Positions 17,156 through 60,242 are shown, counted from the first letter of the stretch. The stretch: 64,000 nucleotides of DNA from Bacteroidota bacterium (GCA_016711505.1 JADJSV010000002.1:199674-263673), one strand, 5' to 3'. The notes: generated by a model from the sequence alone, not told the origin. Made by a program: numbers and translations.

Positions 17156-18883
17156 TTATAGTTTAATTATTTTACAATACTGAGATTTATGGTTGTCAGT
17201 AACTCTTAAAATATATATACCTGATTGAATACTGTGCAAGTCAATAATAAATTCTGATGAATTGTAATTCAATTTTTTTGAGAGAGCACAGTCTGGTTTG
17301 AGCTATTAAATACAGAGTATTCTATTTCTTTTTCAAAACCTTTCAGTGAAATCCTTACAGATCCGGAAACGGGATTAGGACTGCATTCTAACACTTCAAT
17401 ATTCTTACTTGGATTATTTATATCTGATGTTCCTGGTAAAACAACAAACGATCCCATCATACCATCATCTTCATGGTGTAGTAAATGACAATGATACATG
17501 TAAGGTATGGTGTCTGCAAAATCTTCAAACTTGGTTATAAAGGATACTGATTCATTAGGCATGACTAAAACAACATCCTTCTTCACTTGTTCTGAAACAG
17601 GAACAGAAATACCATTGACATCGGTGACATAAAATTGTACATCATGAATATGAAATGGATGGGCGATCAGTGTATTATTTATTAAAGTCCATTTTTCAAC
17701 ATGATTTAAATAGGTAGTATCGTTTATCGTATCCATACTAAATTGATGTCCATTGATTGTAAATGGACCTTCAACCATTTCCATCGGCCCCATAGTTTGT
17801 GGCGCAAAAACGATATCTCTTGTTCTGTTTATCAGACTAGCATCAATTGGTTGGAAATTAACTAATGAAGTTGGAATAGAGGTAACGGATTAAGTGTTGG
17901 GGCAACAACATTTATTTCAAGAAGATCATAATCCGCACCATTTAAGAAATTCAGGTTGTAGTCGGGAATTTGACTCATTCCATTTCCAACATTTTGAGCA
18001 CCTAGAATTCCATCAGGTAATCCACTGCCGTAATTCATCATTGAAATAGTTTGCCCCTGCATTCCGGTAAGATCAATTAGAATTTCAGCTCTTTCTCCGG
18101 GTGATAATTGTAATCGGTTTTTTGCAATAGGGGATCTAACTAAACCACCATCCGTTGCGATTTGATAGAAAGTCATATTGTTTGAGAAACCAAATAAGAA
18201 TGAACGATCAGATGCACCATCGAGTAATCTAAAACGCACAACTTGCGCAGGTGCATTAAAAAAAGCATCGATGGTCGCATTGATCATTGGCACAGTATCA
18301 AACACAGTAGCAATTGCTGTCTGATATAGTACATCAAAACATTTGGTCTGAACTATAAGTGGAACATCATCTATTCCATAAGTTCTCGTAAATTCAATGC
18401 TGATTCAGCACTGTCTTTCACTATTATTAATCCTGCAAGTCCTTTTGAAACTTGAATATCAGTACGATTTTGACCATGTGGATGATACCAATATGTTGCA
18501 GCATCATTCATTACGGTAAATGAAGGCGACCAGGTTGCTCCCGGCATGATCATTTGGTGTGGACCACCATCCGCATGTGCAGGAACATGTAAACCATGCC
18601 AGTGCATAGTTGTAACCGGTGGAATATTGTTTGTTACATTCAGTGTTACATTGTCACCTTTATTTAAAATCAACGTTGGGCCAAGAATGTTTCCATTAAC
18701 ACCATAAGTCGGGGTTTGATGGCCTGCAAAAAATTCCGTTGAATCCGCTTGAACCGTTAAATTGAAATTTGTACCCGACAAAGTGGGTGGAATAAATAAA
18801 GGATTTTGTGAATACGATTTATTAGCAATGACGAAAAGGATCGTCACTGCTAATAAATTGAATATTGATTGTTTGTTTTTCAT
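17156..18883 (-). CDS. Multicopper oxidase (three-domain laccase/CueO-like) with a T9SS C-terminal sorting domain. It is split over about 4 frames.
   Basis: Domain 1 carries HWHG and WYHPH. Domain 3 carries HPFHIHD and HCHLLHHEDDGMMG (T1/T2/T3 copper ligands). The tail '...EFIIDLHSIQSGIYILRVTDNHKSQYCKII' reads in another frame after an A7 run. Confidence 0.8.
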
Positions 18884-38947: not shown

Positions 38948-39242
38948 TTATTTCTTCTTTAGTTTTAATACGCTTTCCATTGATCCATTCTTCAATAATT
39001 TCAAGATCAAACATCAATACCTTTCCAACTTTTGAATGAGGAATGTATCGCTTATATACCCATCCATAGATAGTCGCTTTAGGCCAGCCATATAATTGAC
39101 ACAATTTTTCTATATTCACTTTCCTAGTTGATTCGGGGCGGTTAAAAGAATTAAGAATTGTAGAATCCAATTTATTTTGGATAATAGCTTCCAGTTGTTC
39201 TACACTGAGATCAATGATTCTAATATTCGAGTAGCCTGACAT
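38931..39242 (-). CDS. Helix-turn-helix DNA-binding protein, excisionase/AlpA (Xis)-like
   Basis: 'KLCQLYGWPKATIYGWVYKRYIPHSKVGKVLMFDLEIIEEWI' is a typical HTH_17/Xis domain of Bacteroidetes integrative elements. Confidence 0.6.
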   Translation of the reverse strand: MSGYSNIRIIDLSVEQLEAIIQNKLDSTILNSFNRPESTRKVNIEKLCQLYGWPKATIYGWVYKRYIPHSKVGKVLMFDLEIIEEWINGKRIKTKEEIIENGR

Positions 39243-39295
39243 GGCTCAAGATTAAGAACAATAAAAGGTCACAAAAAAGTACTTTTACAAGTACC

Positions 39296-40143
39296 TTAAA
39301 AATTTAACATTTCAATTAATCCTGGGATTGGCTTAGCAGTGGGCGCATTCGCAGATGAAATACTTTTATGAACATAATTTTCAGTTAGTTCGATTATCTC
39401 ATTTCTTTTCTGCCCTTTAAAATACCTGCAAATCCACGATTCTAAATTCTTCTTCGAATTCAAGATCAGATTTTTGTGGTGAAGTCTGTGGAATGCATCT
39501 AAAAGTTTGATGCAGGGTGCTTGAAAACTTAATGGATTTTCAATTGGATTCCCTTTCAAAAGCATTTCAAGGACTTCGTGTTCCTTAGAATCAAAATATG
39601 GTTTTAAAAGAGCATGAAATTTTGGAAGAAAATGTTCATTGATTGCAATTTCTTTAAAAACATAACTATCGACCTCGTTTTGGTCTTTGCTCCTTTTTGA
39701 ATCAACCCAATTCATTATTGCTTGTCTTCTTAAAATGCACTCATGAAAACAATTTTGCAGACTTTGTCATAAACTCCATATTGAATCATTCCAACAAACT
39801 CAATTTTATCTTTTGCATAATAATTTCCTTCAAACGCAGTAAAATGATAGTCTAAATAGGAATTGATTTTAAATACATCAATTATTGCAAGCTGAATCTG
39901 AAGAAACACGTGATACATAGTAGATCTTGGATCAATCAGAATGGGAAGCAATCTTTCCGTATTATGCTTATAAATAATTCCATTTGGTTCAGCATACAGA
40001 GGTCCTTGAAAATCTAAAATGCTAATCAAACTTTCACATTTGCTCTTCACTTTTAGATTGGTTGCTGAGGTAGATAATTCTAATAATCTCTTTCTTATTG
40101 ACGAGAGATTTAGATCATATATGTGAAATTCAATTTTGGCCAT
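39296..40143 (-). CDS. Hypothetical protein(s), island-borne. Two consecutive ORFs (39730-40143, 39296-39715) in different frames, possibly one ~276-aa frameshifted gene.
   Basis: ORFs are separated by 15 nt with a frame change. No motif recognised. Confidence 0.3.
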
Positions 40144-40230
40144 TATTAATATTTTATTGAAGAAAAGAAAAAAAATAGAGTTTAGAAAATCAAAAATGTT
40201 TAAACCATGTTTAAACCACCTTAAAAAGAA

Positions 40231-40257
40231 AAAGCCTCTACATCTCTGTAAAGGCTT
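40231..40257 (-). terminator. Imperfect hairpin plus T-run immediately 3' of the intact tRNA-Val. The island-borne sequence parallels the displaced terminator at 1572-1610.
   Basis: aagcctttacagagatgtagaggctt followed by ttttt on the minus strand. It resembles the 1599-1623 region. Confidence 0.35.
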
Positions 40258-40266
40258 GATTTCTAA

Positions 40267-40313
40267 AGTGTGGGAGCTACAGGGTTCGAACCTGTGACCC
40301 TCTGCTTGTAAGG
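40267..40313 (-). repeat. 47-bp direct repeat forming the 3' end of the intact tRNA-Val (tRNA-proximal att site)
   Basis: Identical to 1616-1662. Confidence 0.85.
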
Positions 40314-40345
40314 CAGATGCTCTGAACCAGCTGAGCTAAGCTCCC
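40271..40345 (-). tRNA. tRNA-Val, anticodon TAC
   Basis: Manual fold of GGGAGCT-TA-GCTC-AGCTGGTTCA-GAGC-A-TCTGC-CTTACAA-GCAGA-GGGTC-ACAGG-TTCGAAC-CCTGT-AGCTCCC-A. The anticodon loop is CTTACAA. Confidence 0.9.
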
Positions 40346-40558
40346 CTTTTCAAAGAAAAAAGCACTTTTTTTCTTTGGGATGGCAAATATAGAGGATTTT
40401 TTTCGCTGAACAAGAATTCAAATCGAAATAAGTGAAAAAATGTGGTCTTTTATGGGTTTTGGCTCATTTTGAAAGAGTTAATAATGGCATATGTTTTTAG
40501 TTTTTAAAAGGACAATATCTCATTTGAAATAAGCATATCCCAAAATGGAAAATAGTTT

Positions 40559-41458
40559 ATGAAGTATAACGTAAAATCTCTCTTCAAAATCTTTAAAACC
40601 GCCGCCAAAGAATGGTGGTCAAAAGATCCCTTCAAAGAAAGTGCTGTGATCGCTTACTACGCGATCTTCTCTTTGCCCGGATTGTTAGTGTTGATCTTAA
40701 CTGTTGCCGGATATTTATATGGTCAGGACGATATTAACAACAAATTATCTGATCAGATTGCATCAACGATGGGACAGGATACTGCTGTCCAGGTTAGTGA
40801 AATGATTGAAAAAGCGCGAGCGACCGGTAGTTCGGTCTGGGCAACCATTATTGGAATTGTAACAATTATTGTCGGAGCAACCGGAGTATTTGCACAATTT
40901 CAGAAATCGCTCAACATTATCTGGGAAGTAAAAGCAGACGAATCCAAATCAGGTATACTTTCGTTGATTAAAGTGCGGTTGTTTTCTTTTGGCTTAATTA
41001 TATCTGTCGCATTTATCCTCGTAATTTCTTTAGTTGTATCAACATTGCTTGCAGCATTTGGTGGTTGGTTGCAAAGTAATTTTTCAGAAACATTGCTAGT
41101 GATAGTGCAGATTCTGAATGTAATTATTTCACTTTCCATTCTTGCGTTAATTTTTTCACTAATGTTTAAATTTTTCCCTGATGCAAAAATAAAATGGCGC
41201 CATGTTTGGGTGGGTTCATTTGTAACAGCAATACTTTTTGAGTTGGGAAAATTCGGATTGAGTTTATATTTCGGAAAAGCCAGTCCTGAATCGGGATATG
41301 GAGCCGCAGGTTCAATTATATTAATTCTGCTTTGGGTGAGTTATTCATCCATGATCGTATTTCTCGGAGCTGAATTTACCAGAGCGTTTGCAAATTATTA
41401 TGACGGCGATATTCCTGCAGATAAAAATGCTGTTAAAGATAACGGCAGACAAAAATAA
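40559..41458 (+). CDS. YihY/BrkB (virulence factor BrkB) family membrane protein
   Basis: 299 aa, six TM helices, conserved 'AYYAIFSLPGLL...GAEF' pattern. Confidence 0.75.
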   Translation: MKYNVKSLFKIFKTAAKEWWSKDPFKESAVIAYYAIFSLPGLLVLILTVAGYLYGQDDINNKLSDQIASTMGQDTAVQVSEMIEKARATGSSVWATIIGIVTIIVGATGVFAQFQKSLNIIWEVKADESKSGILSLIKVRLFSFGLIISVAFILVISLVVSTLLAAFGGWLQSNFSETLLVIVQILNVIISLSILALIFSLMFKFFPDAKIKWRHVWVGSFVTAILFELGKFGLSLYFGKASPESGYGAAGSIILILLWVSYSSMIVFLGAEFTRAFANYYDGDIPADKNAVKDNGRQK

Positions 41459-52909: not shown

Positions 52910-53353
52910 ATGGCGAACCTTGTACCCTTTTTTATAAGCACAGAGTGTGATATCTACTACAATCCCGAATACAAAATTGTGCAATCGCGCTGGAAGGGGA
53001 TCTATGTAGAAGGTCATCGCCTCAAAGAAATATTTAACGAGTTGATCTACGCACTTGAATCGTATAAGTGTTCTACAATTATTGCTGATGCGAGGGAAAT
53101 GCTGATCATTACTCAGAAAGATCGTCAATGGACGATAGACGATTGGTATCCACGTGCAGTAAAAGCAGGATTCAGAAATCAGGGACTGATATTGAGTAAA
53201 GACACATTTAATGAACTTACTGTAAAACAAATTTCGGCAAATTATGATAATGCAATTATTACAACAAAATATTTTACTTCGCCTTCACATGCTTTGGATT
53301 GGGTGAGGGAGATTGGGGGGGAAACTGTTGGGAAAATGAATAATGAAAAGTGA
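52910..53353 (+). CDS. Hypothetical protein whose 3' end and stop codon lie inside a (GTGAAAA)n repeat
   Basis: Ends '...GKMNNEK*' encoded by aatgaaaagtga. Weak STAS-like resemblance only. Confidence 0.3.
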   Translation: MANLVPFFISTECDIYYNPEYKIVQSRWKGIYVEGHRLKEIFNELIYALESYKCSTIIADAREMLIITQKDRQWTIDDWYPRAVKAGFRNQGLILSKDTFNELTVKQISANYDNAIITTKYFTSPSHALDWVREIGGETVGKMNNEK

Positions 53354-53366
53354 AAAGTGAAAAGTG
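53339..53366 (+). repeat. Heptanucleotide tandem repeat (ATGAAAA)(GTGAAAA)x3
   Basis: Read directly: atgaaaagtgaaaagtgaaaagtgaaaa. Confidence 0.8.
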
Positions 53367-53435
53367 AAAAAAATGCCCCGAGAGTCTATGATAACCTAAG
53401 TAGGAGACGCATTATTCATTATAAATTAAAAAAAG

Positions 53436-53858
53436 GTGGCTGCCCAAAATAAATTTAGTCTATTTACATTTGTTGTTATAATTTTTCTCGCTCTTTTAAC
53501 TCTTTGGGTTCGGAAGTGTAGCAATTCGAATGATAATTTTAAAGAGCGGCCGATATCAGCACAAGTTGGTGATTGGAGACATCATAAATTAATTTTCACG
53601 AAACACGCCAGATGCAGAATGGAATGCAGGGATATTTCAGAATCAGAAATAGCGGATATACTGGTAACCGGAATTATTAATGAATCGAAAAGTAAAGAAG
53701 CAGATGCTGAAGCAAGCGGACAATGCCCGACATTTGCACTAGAAGGAAAAACAGATGATGGACAGAATGTGAGGATTGTTTTTGGAGCATGTGAAAAGAT
53801 CACAAAAGTCATTACTGCAATTGATCTCGGGGCGGAGCATGAGTGTGATTGCAGATAG
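53436..53858 (+). CDS. DUF4258-like domain protein with an N-terminal membrane anchor and a Cys-rich C-terminus
   Basis: 'FTKHARCRMECRDISESEIADIL' matches the H-A-x-x-R-M-x-x-R signature I associate with DUF4258. Confidence 0.4.
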   Translation: MAAQNKFSLFTFVVIIFLALLTLWVRKCSNSNDNFKERPISAQVGDWRHHKLIFTKHARCRMECRDISESEIADILVTGIINESKSKEADAEASGQCPTFALEGKTDDGQNVRIVFGACEKITKVITAIDLGAEHECDCR

Positions 53859-53871
53859 TTTTTATAATTAA

Positions 53872-54405
53872 TTATTCATTTCTAATTATAACAAAGCAAG
53901 CGCCGGGATGTTCTGCGAAGACAAAATCATTTCTGTATTTCATTCCACATTTTTCTAAGACGCGGATGCTTGCAAGATTTTCTTTCATTGATCTTCCTGC
54001 AATTTCCTTGACTTTCAATTTGTGAAATCCAAAATCCAAGCATCCAATTCCGGCTTCTGTTGCGACACCTTGTCCCCAGAATATTTTGTGTAATCGGAAT
54101 CCGAGATCAATTTCATTTAATTTCTCAACGAATTTTAGTCCACACCAGCCGATAAATGTATTGTCTGATTTTCGGATAACTGCCCATCTGCCAATAGGGG
54201 TGTTTGGATTGGAAGGAATAGAAGAGTAACTGTAATCGTTCACAAACTGTTGTGCTTCACGCAAGTCCCTGAAAGGTTTGTCGCCTGTGTATTTCACAAC
54301 ATCAGGATCATTGTTCAGGTTGAATAATTCAATTGCATCGTCCGCAATAAACTGTCTGAGAAACAATCGGTCGGTTTCAATAATTACATTCATAGAGAAA
54401 AGCAA
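53872..54405 (-). CDS. GNAT-family N-acetyltransferase (RimJ/RimL-like)
   Basis: 'ETDRLFLRQF' N-terminus and 'IGWCGL...LGFRLHKIFWGQGVATEA' acetyl-CoA motif region. Confidence 0.75.
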   Translation of the reverse strand: MLFSMNVIIETDRLFLRQFIADDAIELFNLNNDPDVVKYTGDKPFRDLREAQQFVNDYSYSSIPSNPNTPIGRWAVIRKSDNTFIGWCGLKFVEKLNEIDLGFRLHKIFWGQGVATEAGIGCLDFGFHKLKVKEIAGRSMKENLASIRVLEKCGMKYRNDFVFAEHPGACFVIIRNE

Positions 54406-54418
54406 TGGACTTATCTAT

Positions 54419-54859
54419 TCAGATTTTTATTGCTGCTGCCTTTTTTTTGTCGTAGCGGACAAAGAAATTGATCCAGATAATTCTGGACCACCGAAAAGTC
54501 AGAGGGCTGAGGAGTAGAATAGTGATGGCCATAAATCCAATAAAGAAGGCTGTGGACCAATCAAGGACCAATCCATAGAGTATGAACCACGTAATGAACC
54601 AGCCTGATGTTAGCGCATACGAAACGTACATGGCGCCGAAAAAATACCCGGGTTCTTTCTCATAGATCTCACCACAATGAGAGCAGGTTTTTTCCATTTT
54701 AAGCATTCCGCCCTGCAAGCGATATGGGTTATTATGCGTGAATACTTTTCCCTGATGACAACGCGGGCATTTATTCGCAGCCATTGAATACAGGATTTCT
54801 GTTAACATCATGGCGCAAAGGTAAGAAACATTATTTTTGTTTGCAGGTATTTGCGCCAA
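54419..54859 (-). CDS. DUF983-like zinc-ribbon membrane protein
   Basis: 'CPRCHQGKVF...CSHCGE' followed by TM helices. Confidence 0.5.
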   Translation of the reverse strand: MAQIPANKNNVSYLCAMMLTEILYSMAANKCPRCHQGKVFTHNNPYRLQGGMLKMEKTCSHCGEIYEKEPGYFFGAMYVSYALTSGWFITWFILYGLVLDWSTAFFIGFMAITILLLSPLTFRWSRIIWINFFVRYDKKKAAAIKI

Positions 54860-55034
54860 TCAATGTATAAAGTGGGCAAAAACTGATTAAACTGGTTAAA
54901 AGGAAGACTCCTGCAAAGATCATTAAGATGATGCCAAGTGTTCCTGTGATAACATTCGAAAAATAAAGACCTGCGATGATTACGGCAATGATTGTCCGGA
55001 TCACTCTGTCCGTTGTACCCATGTTCTTTTTCAT
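54831..55034 (-). CDS. DUF2892 (YgaP-like) small membrane protein
   Basis: 'GTTDRVIRTIIAVIIAGL...LISFCPLYTLIGANTCK'. Confidence 0.55.
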   Translation of the reverse strand: MKKNMGTTDRVIRTIIAVIIAGLYFSNVITGTLGIILMIFAGVFLLTSLISFCPLYTLIGANTCKQK

Positions 55035-55198
55035 AATAGCTTTAGTTTAATTTTAACCAAAGCTAAACCCTTCAATGTCCCAAAAAGGTGACTAATGTTA
55101 CACAACCCAAACTATTTCATCATCAAACCCTAAAAAAGACAACTTAATTTTTCATTATAAAGCTAATTCATTATTTTTCATCCCGATAAATCGGGATT

Positions 55199-55254
55199 CA
55201 CTTTTCACTTTTCACTTTTCACTTTTCACTTTTCACTTTTCACTTTTCACTTTT
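55199..55254 (-). repeat. Heptanucleotide tandem repeat (GTGAAAA)x8 on the minus strand, flanked by an 8-bp-arm palindrome atcccgat-aa-atcgggat at 55177-55194
   Basis: Read directly: (cactttt)x8 on the plus strand. Confidence 0.85.
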
Positions 55255-55256
55255 TA

Positions 55257-56270
55257 CTATTGATCCGTCAACGCTTTCAAAAAATTAACCAGATCTTGTT
55301 TCTGTTGCGGAGATAAATTTTTCGGTCGCACAACATTGCTTTTATTCGGATGAGGCTGTCCGCCACTATTGTAGTGTTCGACTACTTCTTCGAGTGTTGC
55401 AATACTTCCATCGTGCATATAAGGGGCCGTGAGTTCAACATTTCGTAAAGAAGGTACTTTGAATTTACCGACATCACTTGCATTGCCTGTGATTCGGGCT
55501 CTTCCTGAATCAGGATAAACGGAATACAAGCCATTGTTTTGAAAACTAAAATCGGTGAAATTGTAATCGACATGGCAATGAAAACAATCTGCTTCTTCAT
55601 TGAAGAACATGATCATTCCATTTTTTTCAGAAGTATTCAATGCAAATGAATCACCTTCATAAACAAATCTGTCGTACTTTGATTTACCTGTAAAGAGCGT
55701 ACGCTCATAGCAAGCAATTGCTCTTGTCAAAGTATAAACAGAAGGTTCAAGGCCATAACTTTTCTGAAAATCTGCAACATAGTCTTTGTTGTTCCTAAGT
55801 CTTTCCACAGCCAGATTCACATCAAAGTCCATTTCATTTGGGTTTTCGATAGGAGCAAGCACCTGTTGTTCAAGATTCGGAACACCACCATCCCAGAAGG
55901 AATAAGGCTGATAAGCAACATTCAAAATTGTCATTGCATTTCGCATTGCATGTCTGCCACTGATTCCTAAACTTAATGCTACACCATCTGTGAATTTTAA
56001 TCCCGGCAAGTGACAAGATCCACATGAAATAGAACTGTCTCTTGAAAGAATTGGATCGAAAAATAATTTCTCACCCAATGCAATTCTGTTTAAAGTCGGC
56101 TTGTTATCGGAAGGAATATTCGGATAAGGAAATCCAACAGGCACATCCAGAATTATAAATTCATTTCCCGGATCGATAATAGGATCTGTAGCTTTTTCCT
56201 TTTTGCAGGCAAAAGTCATTAAAGCAATAAAGAATAAGAATACATACTTTTTCATCCTGTCAAATTGCAT
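55257..56270 (-). CDS. Di-haem cytochrome c peroxidase (CCP/MauG/MbnH family)
   Basis: Two CxxCH haem motifs (SCGSCHL and DCFHCHVD). Signal peptide. ~337 aa. Confidence 0.85.
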   Translation of the reverse strand: MQFDRMKKYVFLFFIALMTFACKKEKATDPIIDPGNEFIILDVPVGFPYPNIPSDNKPTLNRIALGEKLFFDPILSRDSSISCGSCHLPGLKFTDGVALSLGISGRHAMRNAMTILNVAYQPYSFWDGGVPNLEQQVLAPIENPNEMDFDVNLAVERLRNNKDYVADFQKSYGLEPSVYTLTRAIACYERTLFTGKSKYDRFVYEGDSFALNTSEKNGMIMFFNEEADCFHCHVDYNFTDFSFQNNGLYSVYPDSGRARITGNASDVGKFKVPSLRNVELTAPYMHDGSIATLEEVVEHYNSGGQPHPNKSNVVRPKNLSPQQKQDLVNFLKALTDQ

Positions 56271-56333: not shown

Positions 56334-57092
56334 TTATTCTACTTCAAAAGCAGACTGCCAACTGTTAGCTATTTTGGTTGCTAACATCATATTATCCATT
56401 GTATGCGTCATAAGTTCTGAAGTCATATCAACATTGATCAATGCAGCAGCAAGATCAAAATTCAAGTGGATCACCTGATCTTGTCCTGAATTTACGCTGA
56501 ATGCGTCCGTAGAAAAGTCAATGGTACGTTTAAATTCGTCCATGCCGATATGATATAAATAGTCAACGTTTACAGGTCCGGTTTGAGCAACAGTTGTATC
56601 AACCTTGCCTTCAACTTTCCAGAATATGTAACCGCTATTCCATGACCAGTGAATCGAAGGTGTTTGAACAGAAAGCGGATTTGACGAAGGGTATGTTGAC
56701 GGATCGGAGTGATTTATTGTTGAATCAAGTCCTACAATAAATCTGAAGCCTTTGTAATTTCCGACAGGAACCATTCCTAATTCATACTCATCAATTTCCG
56801 GATTTGTAAGAAAAATTTTTCCTGTAATCGGCAATTCGCTTCCGTCACTTTTGATCAGCACAATATTTGAAATATACATTCTGTAATCTTCAATTGTGAA
56901 TCGTTGACCGGCTGAATTTATAAATGTAGAATCATAATTTGCTGTATGTGTTCCAACATTCGAGTGTAAATGCATTGTCAGATTTTGCTCTGTAGAAGGA
57001 GTTGGTTCTTCAGATTTATCCTTTTTACATGAAGTGAATAATAGAGTTGTGCATGCTAATGTCATAGCTGCAATGGAAAATAGTTTTTTCAT
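56334..57092 (-). CDS. Lipoprotein, putatively an MbnP-family copper-binding partner of the adjacent di-haem peroxidase
   Basis: Lipobox FTSCK. ~250 aa. It sits immediately 5' of and co-oriented with the CCP gene. The family call is from memory of Bacteroidetes MbnP-like proteins ('...HWSWNSGYIFWKVEG'). Confidence 0.35.
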   Translation of the reverse strand: MKKLFSIAAMTLACTTLLFTSCKKDKSEEPTPSTEQNLTMHLHSNVGTHTANYDSTFINSAGQRFTIEDYRMYISNIVLIKSDGSELPITGKIFLTNPEIDEYELGMVPVGNYKGFRFIVGLDSTINHSDPSTYPSSNPLSVQTPSIHWSWNSGYIFWKVEGKVDTTVAQTGPVNVDYLYHIGMDEFKRTIDFSTDAFSVNSGQDQVIHLNFDLAAALINVDMTSELMTHTMDNMMLATKIANSWQSAFEVE

Positions 57093-59858: not shown

Positions 59859-60096
59859 GGTTCGTGTGATTTTCGTGTCAAAAACAATAGCAATAAAAGT
59901 CAGACAGTATCATTTGTGGTATATTTAACATTGCCTTAACTGATATTCAAATATTCATTATATGTTTCGAATTATTATCAGTCTTGTGTCAGTTGTCTGT
60001 CATCGTAGCGTCAGGTGATGTAGGTATTTATTTTCGTGAATCGTGATTCGAGTTGTCCTTGATTCAGCGGTTTACTTGCTGCCAGGATTTTTATTT

Positions 60097-60242
60097 CCCG
60101 CAGATCCCGCAGATCCCGCAGATTAAGGCGCAGATCTTGTGTTCCAATTATTCACTGCTATTGCAAGAAAAACGATCTGGTATAATTTCGACGAACACTA
60201 TCTGCGGATTTATCTGCGCCTTAATCTGCGGGATCTGCGGGA
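60097..60242. repeat. GC-rich composite repeat with 31-bp perfect inverted arms (tcccgcagatcccgcagattaaggcgcagat), each built from 9-bp 'cccgcagat' direct repeats, around a ~75-bp AT-rich spacer containing ttgcaa/tataat-like hexamers
   Basis: Read directly. The left arm is 60096-60135, and the right arm's reverse complement lies at 60200-60242. The ORF 60053-60292 across it is an artefact. Confidence 0.7.

Follow-up and report, generated by a model that had tools for sequence, protein, structure and literature searches.

The 64,000-nt stretch of Bacteroidota bacterium DNA analysed here (GCA_016711505.1 JADJSV010000002.1:199674-263673; hereafter the window) contains two tandem arrays of the heptamer GTGAAAA that are inverted relative to each other and bracket a 1.8-kb segment with four genes. 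The question raised by this locus is whether arrays and genes form one structural or regulatory unit. The first-pass annotation had described the arrays as prone to slippage and had offered three roles for them: phase-variable promoter spacers, terminal repeats of a small cassette, or binding sites for a regulator. The two arrays proved to be real; array A on the plus strand and array B on the minus strand are both perfect runs facing the enclosed genes. We conclude that they are probably members of a dispersed, slippage-prone family (GTGAAAA)n of heptanucleotide simple sequence repeats (SSRs) or variable number tandem repeats (VNTRs). The tandem units, whole-unit polymorphism, dispersed loci and evolutionary transience that characterize a long-SSR family were all observed. 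Dispersed heptanucleotide repeats of bacteria are already known as a class, and what is new here is the host and the GTGAAAA unit, an array of which was not described in the literature searched.

Copy number was shown to vary within the species. Array B stands between the genes for a di-haem cytochrome c peroxidase (CCP) and a YgaP-like protein, and public contigs that encode CCP and YgaP of exactly the same sequence, at 98-99% identity to the window, were taken as conspecific; they include the metagenome-assembled genomes GCA_016704865.1, GCA_016719005.1 and GCA_963851665.1. Across these contigs array B was counted at 5, 5, 6, 6, 7, 7, 8, 9 and 11 units, the window being tallied here under 7, and array A had 3 units in six assemblies and 4 in one (L141). 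The predicted proneness to slippage was thereby borne out between conspecific assemblies. Besides, a second allele of the CCP-YgaP spacer was found in seven conspecific contigs (L139, L140, L142, L404, L409, L412 and L413). What allele 2 lacks is array B, the adjoining hairpin and an AT-rich stretch of about 70 nt; all four genes and the YgaP promoter region are kept. Its spacer reads GAT GAA TAA CTAATAA TGATAA TGAAAAG TGATT, a degenerate period-7 stretch in which one proto-unit is left, at ...AATGAAAAGTGATT. As read from BLAST breakpoints and alignment, the segment found in allele 1 only is an indel polymorphism inside the species. An origin of these ~100 nt as a miniature inverted-repeat transposable element (MITE) or other insertion was considered and rejected, the segment being single-copy with no other copy by BLAST against the DNA examined.

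Further tracts in the genome, for which the first-pass annotation had advised a search, came to light when the SPFH/Band_7 protein encoded on the contig L408 (see below) was traced. They are two more (GTGAAAA)n arrays, C and D, both on contig CAWKQN010000008.1 of GCA_963851665.1 (the assembly of L003), so that four arrays are known from the ~87 kb of genome examined. Array C, which had 9.6 units there, had 4.6 units in one other assembly (L421:4321-4352) and at least 4.9 in another (L422:1-34, a contig that begins within the array). It is followed by a C8 run and, ~55 nt on, by the -7 box TACCTTTG. Among the longer arrays, B and C (5-11 units), copy number differed in almost every assembly, and the 3-unit arrays A and D were nearly fixed, which fits the usual length dependence of slippage. 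Within the 64 kb of the window, A and B were the only period-7 arrays of at least three copies (Tandem Repeats Finder). A 14-mer search allowing at most 2 mismatches gave 12 occurrences compared to 2.4 +/- 1.5 in shuffles (0 of 100 shuffles reached 12); the single heptamer GTGAAAA was not enriched elsewhere in the window. The 14-mer ATAATGAAAAGTGA, common to site A and to allele 2 of site B, was absent elsewhere in the window and should be taken for a pair of degenerate (GTGAAAA)n units rather than for a recurrent motif.

Comparison with relatives showed the arrays to be young. In the sister species (CCP 84% identical; L414-L417) no heptamer array was present at either site, and the gene order MbnP-CCP-YgaP-DUF983-GNAT-MFS-DUF4258-(63 aa)-ORF147-VTT-T9SS (type IX secretion system) protein matched that of the window. 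The YgaP-DUF983-GNAT string kept its synteny in the sister species as well as in a 69% relative, and the adjacency of DUF4258 to the open reading frame ORF147, whose 3' end carries array A, was kept in relatives without the array. Array A was absent behind ORF147 orthologues of 86, 76 and 69% identity; the 86% relative carries GAAAAGGTGAATAAGAAAAAATAA where array A stands, a plausible proto-sequence of the array. Presence of the module in relatives was followed through homologues of ORF147, GNAT, YgaP and CCP, and the sister species and the 69-86% relatives were the informative loci; ORF147 homologues of 57-65% identity were found in unrelated contexts and were uninformative. When the locus was compared across strains for presence or absence of the bracketed module, as had been advised, no inverted or empty-site version of the 1.8-kb segment was found among ~30 conspecific contigs. 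Because they are absent in the sister species, in the 69-86% relatives and in conspecific allele 2, the arrays are recent and dispensable. We conclude that they arose in this species only, at gene ends that were already A-rich, and that the enclosed genes are ordinary syntenic chromosome.

The two arrays were found at the ends of genes (Table 1). The TGA stop codon of ORF147 falls in the first unit of array A, as annotated, and the array is in sense orientation relative to this gene. Across array A the plus strand reads AATGAATAA, three TGAAAAG units, TGAAAAA and AATGCC, with GGGAAAATGAATAA on its 5' side and AATGCCCC after the final TGAAAAA; degenerate units (TGAATAA) lie directly 5' of it, starting at ~53336. 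The range first given for the array, 53339-53366, was right as to the site and comprises one degenerate and three perfect units in the AAAAGTG phase, while the perfect run is the one listed in Table 1. It had also been held that a 7-bp change would alter the C-terminus of the upstream protein. This was shown not to be the case: the ORF147 product ends in ...GKMNNEK* with 1 to 6 simulated units and in the natural 4-unit variant (L141), since the stop codon sits in the first unit. The ORF147 tail beyond WVREI differs in length and sequence among homologues in the alignment. No GC-rich hairpin adjoining array A was found by folding, and the array is predicted to be unstructured. The DUF4258 gene that follows was called as a 79-aa short form in other assemblies.

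Array B is likewise in sense orientation directly behind a stop codon, that of CCP (CTA on the plus strand, i.e., TAG, 55257-55259), from which a single degenerate unit (GTAAAAA) separates it. Across the array the plus strand reads ATCCCGATAAATCGGGAT, eight TCACTTT units and TTACTATTGATCCG. Its annotated position behind the CCP stop, beside a short palindrome and 164 nt from the YgaP-like (DUF2892) ATG at 55034, was correct, and Pfam returned the gene names DUF4258, GNAT, DUF983, DUF2892 and CCP as annotated. The inward-facing geometry arises because each array trails its own upstream gene and ORF147 and CCP converge; the bracketing would be a positional coincidence of two convergent upstream genes and not a structural unit.

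Table 1. Coordinates of the arrays, neighbouring genes and related features (window positions unless a locus is given).
Feature	Position	Strand	Size	Basis or remark
ORF147, conserved hypothetical	52910-53353	+	147 aa	Gene call, Pfam; no Pfam match
Array A, (TGAAAAG)3.9, perfect run	53344-53370	+	27 nt	Sequence reading, Tandem Repeats Finder (score 57)
DUF4258 gene, long form	53436-53858	+		Gene call, Pfam; 3' of ORF147 and array A
GNAT	53872-54405	-		Gene call, Pfam; co-directional string downstream of CCP
DUF983	54419-54859	-		Gene call, Pfam; same string
YgaP-like transmembrane protein (DUF2892)	54831-55034	-		Gene call, Pfam; same string
Bacteroidetes-type -7 box TAGCTTTG	55058-55065	-		23 nt upstream of YgaP-like ATG
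Allele-1-only segment	55124-55232			BLAST breakpoints, alignment; part of array B, hairpin, ~70 nt AT-rich spacer
GC-rich palindrome ATCCCGAT-AA-ATCGGGAT	55180-55197		8-bp arms	Sequence reading; abuts array B
Array B, (GTGAAAA)8.3, perfect run (CACTTTT on + strand)	55197-55254	-	58 nt	Sequence reading, Tandem Repeats Finder (score 117)
CCP, di-haem cytochrome c peroxidase (CCP_MauG; MbnH-like partner of MbnP)	55257-56270	-		Pfam
MbnP	56334-57092			Pfam; upstream of CCP
Array C, (TCACTTT)n	L420:9806-9872		9.6 units	QueG/SPFH divergent spacer
Array D, (GAAAAGT)3.3	L420:16444-16466; L422:6602-6624	sense		Begins 3 nt past DUF4296 stop
Inward-facing array pairs (examples)	L047:304-396; L103:2684-2767; L068:1637-1698; L046:5293-5366			
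Arrays abutting a -7 box	L018, L024, L028, L038-L040, L049, L070, L072, L078, L098, L106, L113, L115, L120			

A (GTGAAAA)3 pattern scan of species-representative genomes gave at least 120 stretches, taken as 8-kb loci, in which 128 arrays were analysed for position. The arrays occurred in at least 120 species, more than half of them Bacteroidota as judged by record titles, and many of the 8-kb loci held several. Further hosts among the matches listed, to which the positional counts given below also refer, were Acidobacteriota, Vulcanimicrobiota, Fibrobacteria, Planctomycetota, Chloroflexota, Nitrospirota, Desulfobacterota and one archaeon. Intergenic arrays made up 109 of the 128, and none was sense-oriented within an ORF. 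Most sense arrays (34 of 50) began no more than 28 nt from the upstream stop codon, which lay within the array in 15; in the antisense configuration, 9 of 54 arrays were within 30 nt. The tracts take up defined positions relative to genes and are not random, with the bias toward stop codons and not toward gene starts. Sense arrays would sit at stops because 7 is not a multiple of 3, and a sense unit brings a TGA into each of the three frames once per 21 nt.

Slipped-strand mispairing would create arrays from short A-rich proto-repeats, at this locus at the 3' ends of two genes, and the arrays would then grow and shrink by whole units at a rate that seems to rise with length. A sense array could last only at a place where translation stops anyway, or at one where it truncates a dispensable tail, and sites just past a stop codon would be the most permissive place for it. 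Period 7 prevailed among the long SSRs: 291 kb of loci that had not been selected for repeats contained 5 arrays with period 7 and none with periods 5, 6 or 8-12, and in 843 kb of pattern-scan loci there were 61 heptamer arrays of units other than GTGAAAA, compared to 2, 14, 6 and 1 of periods 5, 6, 8 and 9.

The T-rich face of some arrays was found next to promoters. In 16 of the 128 arrays, (TTTTCAC)n abuts a TAnnTTTG -7 box, a few nucleotides away, compared to 0-2 in three control configurations. Almost all of these are from Bacteroidales (Prevotella, Bacteroidaceae and others), and in these cases the array fills the -33/spacer region of the promoter. The promoter search was based on this Bacteroidetes-type box in place of the sigma-70 consensus, which is irrelevant for Bacteroidota; a sigma-70-type scan gave counts not above those in shuffles.

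Several observations weigh against plain slippage as the whole explanation. Inward-facing pairs of arrays numbered 20, of which 18 were less than 600 nt apart, and outward-facing pairs numbered 7, all more than 1.5 kb apart, so that close pairs were 18 inward to 0 outward. In viral contigs GTGAAAA was found in 54 stretches compared to 6, 10 and 17 for three composition-matched heptamers and 6 for an octamer, that is, it was 3-9 times commoner than the matched heptamers; a hexamer control was not used, as it is confounded by coding-compatible repeats in giant viruses. Neutral slippage alone does not explain this unit preference or the strict inward polarity of close pairs, and a sequence-specific selection or mechanism behind preference and orientation rules is hinted at. 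The cause could lie in A-/U-tract modules of terminators or insulators, or in template-switch copying across a hairpin. The presence of the same unit in A and B, 1.8 kb apart, is only modestly likely by chance at ~0.03 arrays/kb, which is a post hoc estimate. Furthermore, copy numbers were read at assembly level. Homopolymer-type irregularities were seen at the array edges in L001 and L002, two assemblies that we take to be nanopore-based. In favour of the counts, several of those for array B are from k127/k141 Illumina contigs, whose k exceeds the length of the array (35-77 nt).

When folded, the inward close pairs, which occur across many phyla, give long, near-perfect hairpins (z-scores from -5 to -12), and a GC-rich core often stands at the centre. 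Some pairs carry their variant units in mirror image on the two arms; this suggests that a palindrome was copied by template switching, and not that the arms expanded independently.

From these patterns a functional reading can be drawn, in which (GTGAAAA)n is a cross-phylum gene-boundary element made of A-/U-tract terminator or insulator modules, or of platforms for a single-strand-binding protein, and tunes read-through by the number of units. It would account for the purine-rich face on mRNA after stops, the U-rich face upstream of promoters and the inward pairs around GC hairpins, and we hold it to be rather unlikely. If it were true, unit changes such as those from 5 to 11 at the CCP/YgaP boundary would adjust read-through between neighbouring transcription units.

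A related explanation confined to this locus, to which we likewise give only a small chance, is that array B, in the 3' untranslated and intercistronic region of CCP, and perhaps A, is a tunable regulatory spacer whose unit number, together with the hairpin, sets read-through from MbnP-CCP into YgaP-DUF983-GNAT or the stability of the CCP mRNA. Expression would then vary heritably and reversibly, as with (ATCTTTC)n of Haemophilus hmw. The hypervariability of array B would suit such a role, as would its place between co-directional genes, where the hairpin has no U-tract on the sense strand and read-through is plausible, and the existence of a whole allele without both array and hairpin; a transcribed heptamer SSR that controls expression is on record (PMC12721329). 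However, the downstream genes have their own promoter: the box TAGCTTTG, ~135 nt downstream of array B, is conserved between the two spacer alleles, and at the corresponding site the sister species shows TACATTTG. The genes are also atypical as contingency loci, the array RNA is predicted to be unstructured (fold z-score +0.25) with no long hairpin like that of hmw, conspecifics and the sister species do without array and hairpin, which shows that these are not needed, and the same arrays stand behind unrelated genes in many phyla. The variant in which the tracts act as phase-variable promoter spacers fails on position, as both arrays lie past stop codons and ~95-135 nt upstream of -7 boxes, not between promoter elements; the box nearest to array A is TACATTTG at 53465. 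The arrays may still lie within a read-through transcript.

The hairpin at site B and the U-rich array face could also be taken as an intrinsic terminator or insulator, with (UUUUCAC)n as the U-tract on the plus strand and (GUGAAAA)n as the A-tract on the minus strand. Site B would then be a 'half' version of the array/GC hairpin/inverted array architecture of other genomes. A consensus scan indeed called a terminator at 55180-55197, on the plus strand only, with the tail TCACTTTTCA, and the stable hairpins of the inward close pairs, with an A-tract 5' and a U-tract 3', show the polarity expected of bidirectional terminators. But in the window a terminator in this canonical orientation would be antisense to all the annotated genes around it, CCP and YgaP included, and past the hairpin no U-tract was found on the minus strand, which is the sense strand of CCP; a terminator or insulator role is ranked below a plain SSR because of this orientation. 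Array A has no adjacent GC hairpin, and terminator-like sites in the region were not enriched (16 compared to 11.9 +/- 3.5 in shuffles). On the contig of arrays C and D (L420:17495-17575) a different heptamer, GTTCAAA, makes up an array and an inverted array on the two sides of a GC hairpin (GTCTTCGTAGGCGCCTACGAAGAC), and this palindrome sits in the divergent promoter spacer between an epimerase gene and tyrS, not at gene ends where a terminator is expected. On balance a terminator at site B is improbable, and array B with its hairpin is at most a putative unstructured A-rich/U-rich spacer, a weak insulator between the CCP and YgaP units.

It is very unlikely that the GTGAAAA units are protein binding sites, one per heptamer, either for a transcription factor ('iterons') or for a cold-shock or single-strand-binding protein on the transcribed repeat. 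The preference for this unit over composition-matched heptamers and the strict strand rules would agree with binding, and CspB is reported to bind T-rich heptamer repeats with one protein per heptamer (PMC4679880, on TAACTGA repeats). Against this, Pfam revealed no cognate regulator gene nearby, the arrays stand beside unrelated genes in many phyla, and the number of 'sites' varies freely down to the loss of the array in conspecifics. The unit of 7 nt is short compared to the direct repeats of ~17-22 bp in iterons, and neither a replication gene nearby nor an origin context was found, with no DnaA-box cluster in the window.

There is next to no probability that the inverted arrays, as terminal repeats, bound a small four-gene cassette, be it mobile or invertible. 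They do flank four genes, and the contig L408 joins array B to array C, as if arrays could act or appear as recombination or assembly breakpoints. But gene order across both sites is kept in the array-free sister species and the 69% relative, and in allele-2 strains array B is missing while the four genes stay. Pfam revealed no gene for a transposase, integrase or recombinase in or beside the segment (52.1-57.6 kb), no contig has the segment inverted or missing, and the L408 junction, at 2.5x coverage, is as expected of a repeat longer than k. This SPAdes junction (L408:1103-1260) leads into the SPFH/Band_7 locus. In a second, low-coverage SPAdes contig (L411:150-260) the hairpin, cut exactly at the array boundary, is joined to the region upstream of an htpG-like gene; this junction contains no array. 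Both contigs link the YgaP side of the locus to unrelated DNA and may be chimeras or misassemblies, or real rearrangements with the array as breakpoint.

Further observations were made around the arrays. No known RNA family was found in 52.5-56.0 kb (Rfam, E<=1). The YgaP-like -7 box is preceded at a distance of ~20-30 nt by GTAACAnnAGTCAC(C)TTTT (window 55066-55100; L414:11080-11130). This motif, a candidate operator or -33 region, is kept in both spacer alleles of the window species and in the sister species, the remaining spacer being unrelated. DUF4258 and GNAT converge in the window with 13 nt between their stops (53859-53871). The MFS transporter gene found between them in the sister species (L414:12479-13785) and in more distant relatives (L137:8856-10034, L135:1285-2367) is absent in the window and was merely lost by the window species. 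In the ORF147-DUF4258 spacer of the sister species (L414:14203-14390), where the window has array A, tandem ATCTGCG(G/T) units are present. A relative of 73% identity carries AAGTAAT x2.7, AAGTATG x3.6, GAAGTTA x5.4 and GAAAATT x3.0 in other spacers of the syntenic region (L418:5736-5828, 18058-18078), which shows that the lineage turns over both heptamer arrays and units. In GCA_016719005.1 an IS110-family transposase insertion (L002:7374-8456) lies between folC and a 123-aa gene upstream of MbnP; it is absent from the window and the other assemblies.

Elsewhere in the window, at 60096-60242, a second repeat family shares the architecture of the arrays, with (CCCGCAGAT)3 and variants on the left and (ATCTGCGGG)2 and variants on the right, inverted around ~75 nt. 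Its ATCTGCG(G/T) units are those that stand in tandem at the site of array A in the sister species. At 38950-40560 the genes switch from the minus strand on the left to the plus strand on the right, and an AT-rich 1.6-kb spacer with tRNA-Val coincides with the minimum of the cumulative GC skew. A replication origin at this 39-40 kb strand switch was considered and rejected, as a DnaA-box cluster was not found; the site is probably a mere divergent gene boundary.

For this locus, assigning arrays A and B to a slippage-prone SSR family clears away two misleading ideas, a mobile four-gene cassette and an editing of the upstream protein by the repeats. Arrays B and C are natural VNTR markers that could separate 98-99% identical strains of this activated-sludge Bacteroidia species. 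The same arrays break or mis-join short-read assemblies; Logan k=31 contigs end inside array B, and L408 links two loci.

Among known systems is the heptanucleotide class itself, which is reported to outnumber the other long-SSR classes in most prokaryotic genomes, with polymerase slippage as the proposed cause (Mrazek, Guo & Shah 2007, cited after PMC4679880 and PMC4692102). The period spectrum found here agrees with this class, which is a statistical class and not a defined element. The (ATCTTTC)n repeat of Haemophilus influenzae hmw1A/hmw2A is a phase-variable, transcribed heptamer whose copy number varies between isolates; it lies in the 5' untranslated region, has at least 11 units and an RNase III-processed hairpin with a G-rich arm, and has a proven inverse effect on adhesin expression (PMC12721329), which makes it the only one of these heptamer precedents with a proven function. 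In contrast, arrays A and B trail genes and are predicted to be unstructured, and the hmw hairpin has no counterpart here.

The STRR repeats of cyanobacteria, said to go back to Mazel and colleagues in 1990, are reportedly dispersed tandem heptamers of a few preferred units. They differ from GTGAAAA in units and lineage and serve as an analogy only. Three tandemly repeated heptanucleotides are on record for Calothrix PCC 7601 (PMC4692102). A further parallel is offered by the direct repeats of TAACTGA that marine Beggiatoaceae share with some Cyanobacteria and Bacteroidetes (MacGregor 2015, PMC4679880). As with GTGAAAA, one heptamer is found at many intergenic sites in unrelated phyla and contains stop codons in the forward orientation. 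However, TAACTGA in forward orientation is mostly found a few nucleotides ahead of start codons, whereas forward GTGAAAA arrays lie at stop codons.

Similar in kind are the GGGAATC and GGGGA(C/T)T repeats of Xanthomonas and Nostoc, which are dispersed, mostly intergenic period-7 arrays (Rehm et al. 2015, PMC4692102). The rules described for GGGAATC in Xanthomonas are sense arrays at stop codons, antisense arrays upstream of genes, many close convergent pairs and extensive length variation between close relatives (PMC4692102). The GTGAAAA arrays follow these positional rules, with sense arrays at stops, antisense arrays upstream of genes and inward pairs. They differ from the Rehm repeats in that the unit is A-rich and no G-quadruplexes are possible, that the host is a low-GC member of the Bacteroidia, and that the family spans many phyla. 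That an A-rich heptamer obeys the rules of the G-rich Xanthomonas heptamer suggests that these rules belong to the heptamer class and not to G-quadruplexes.

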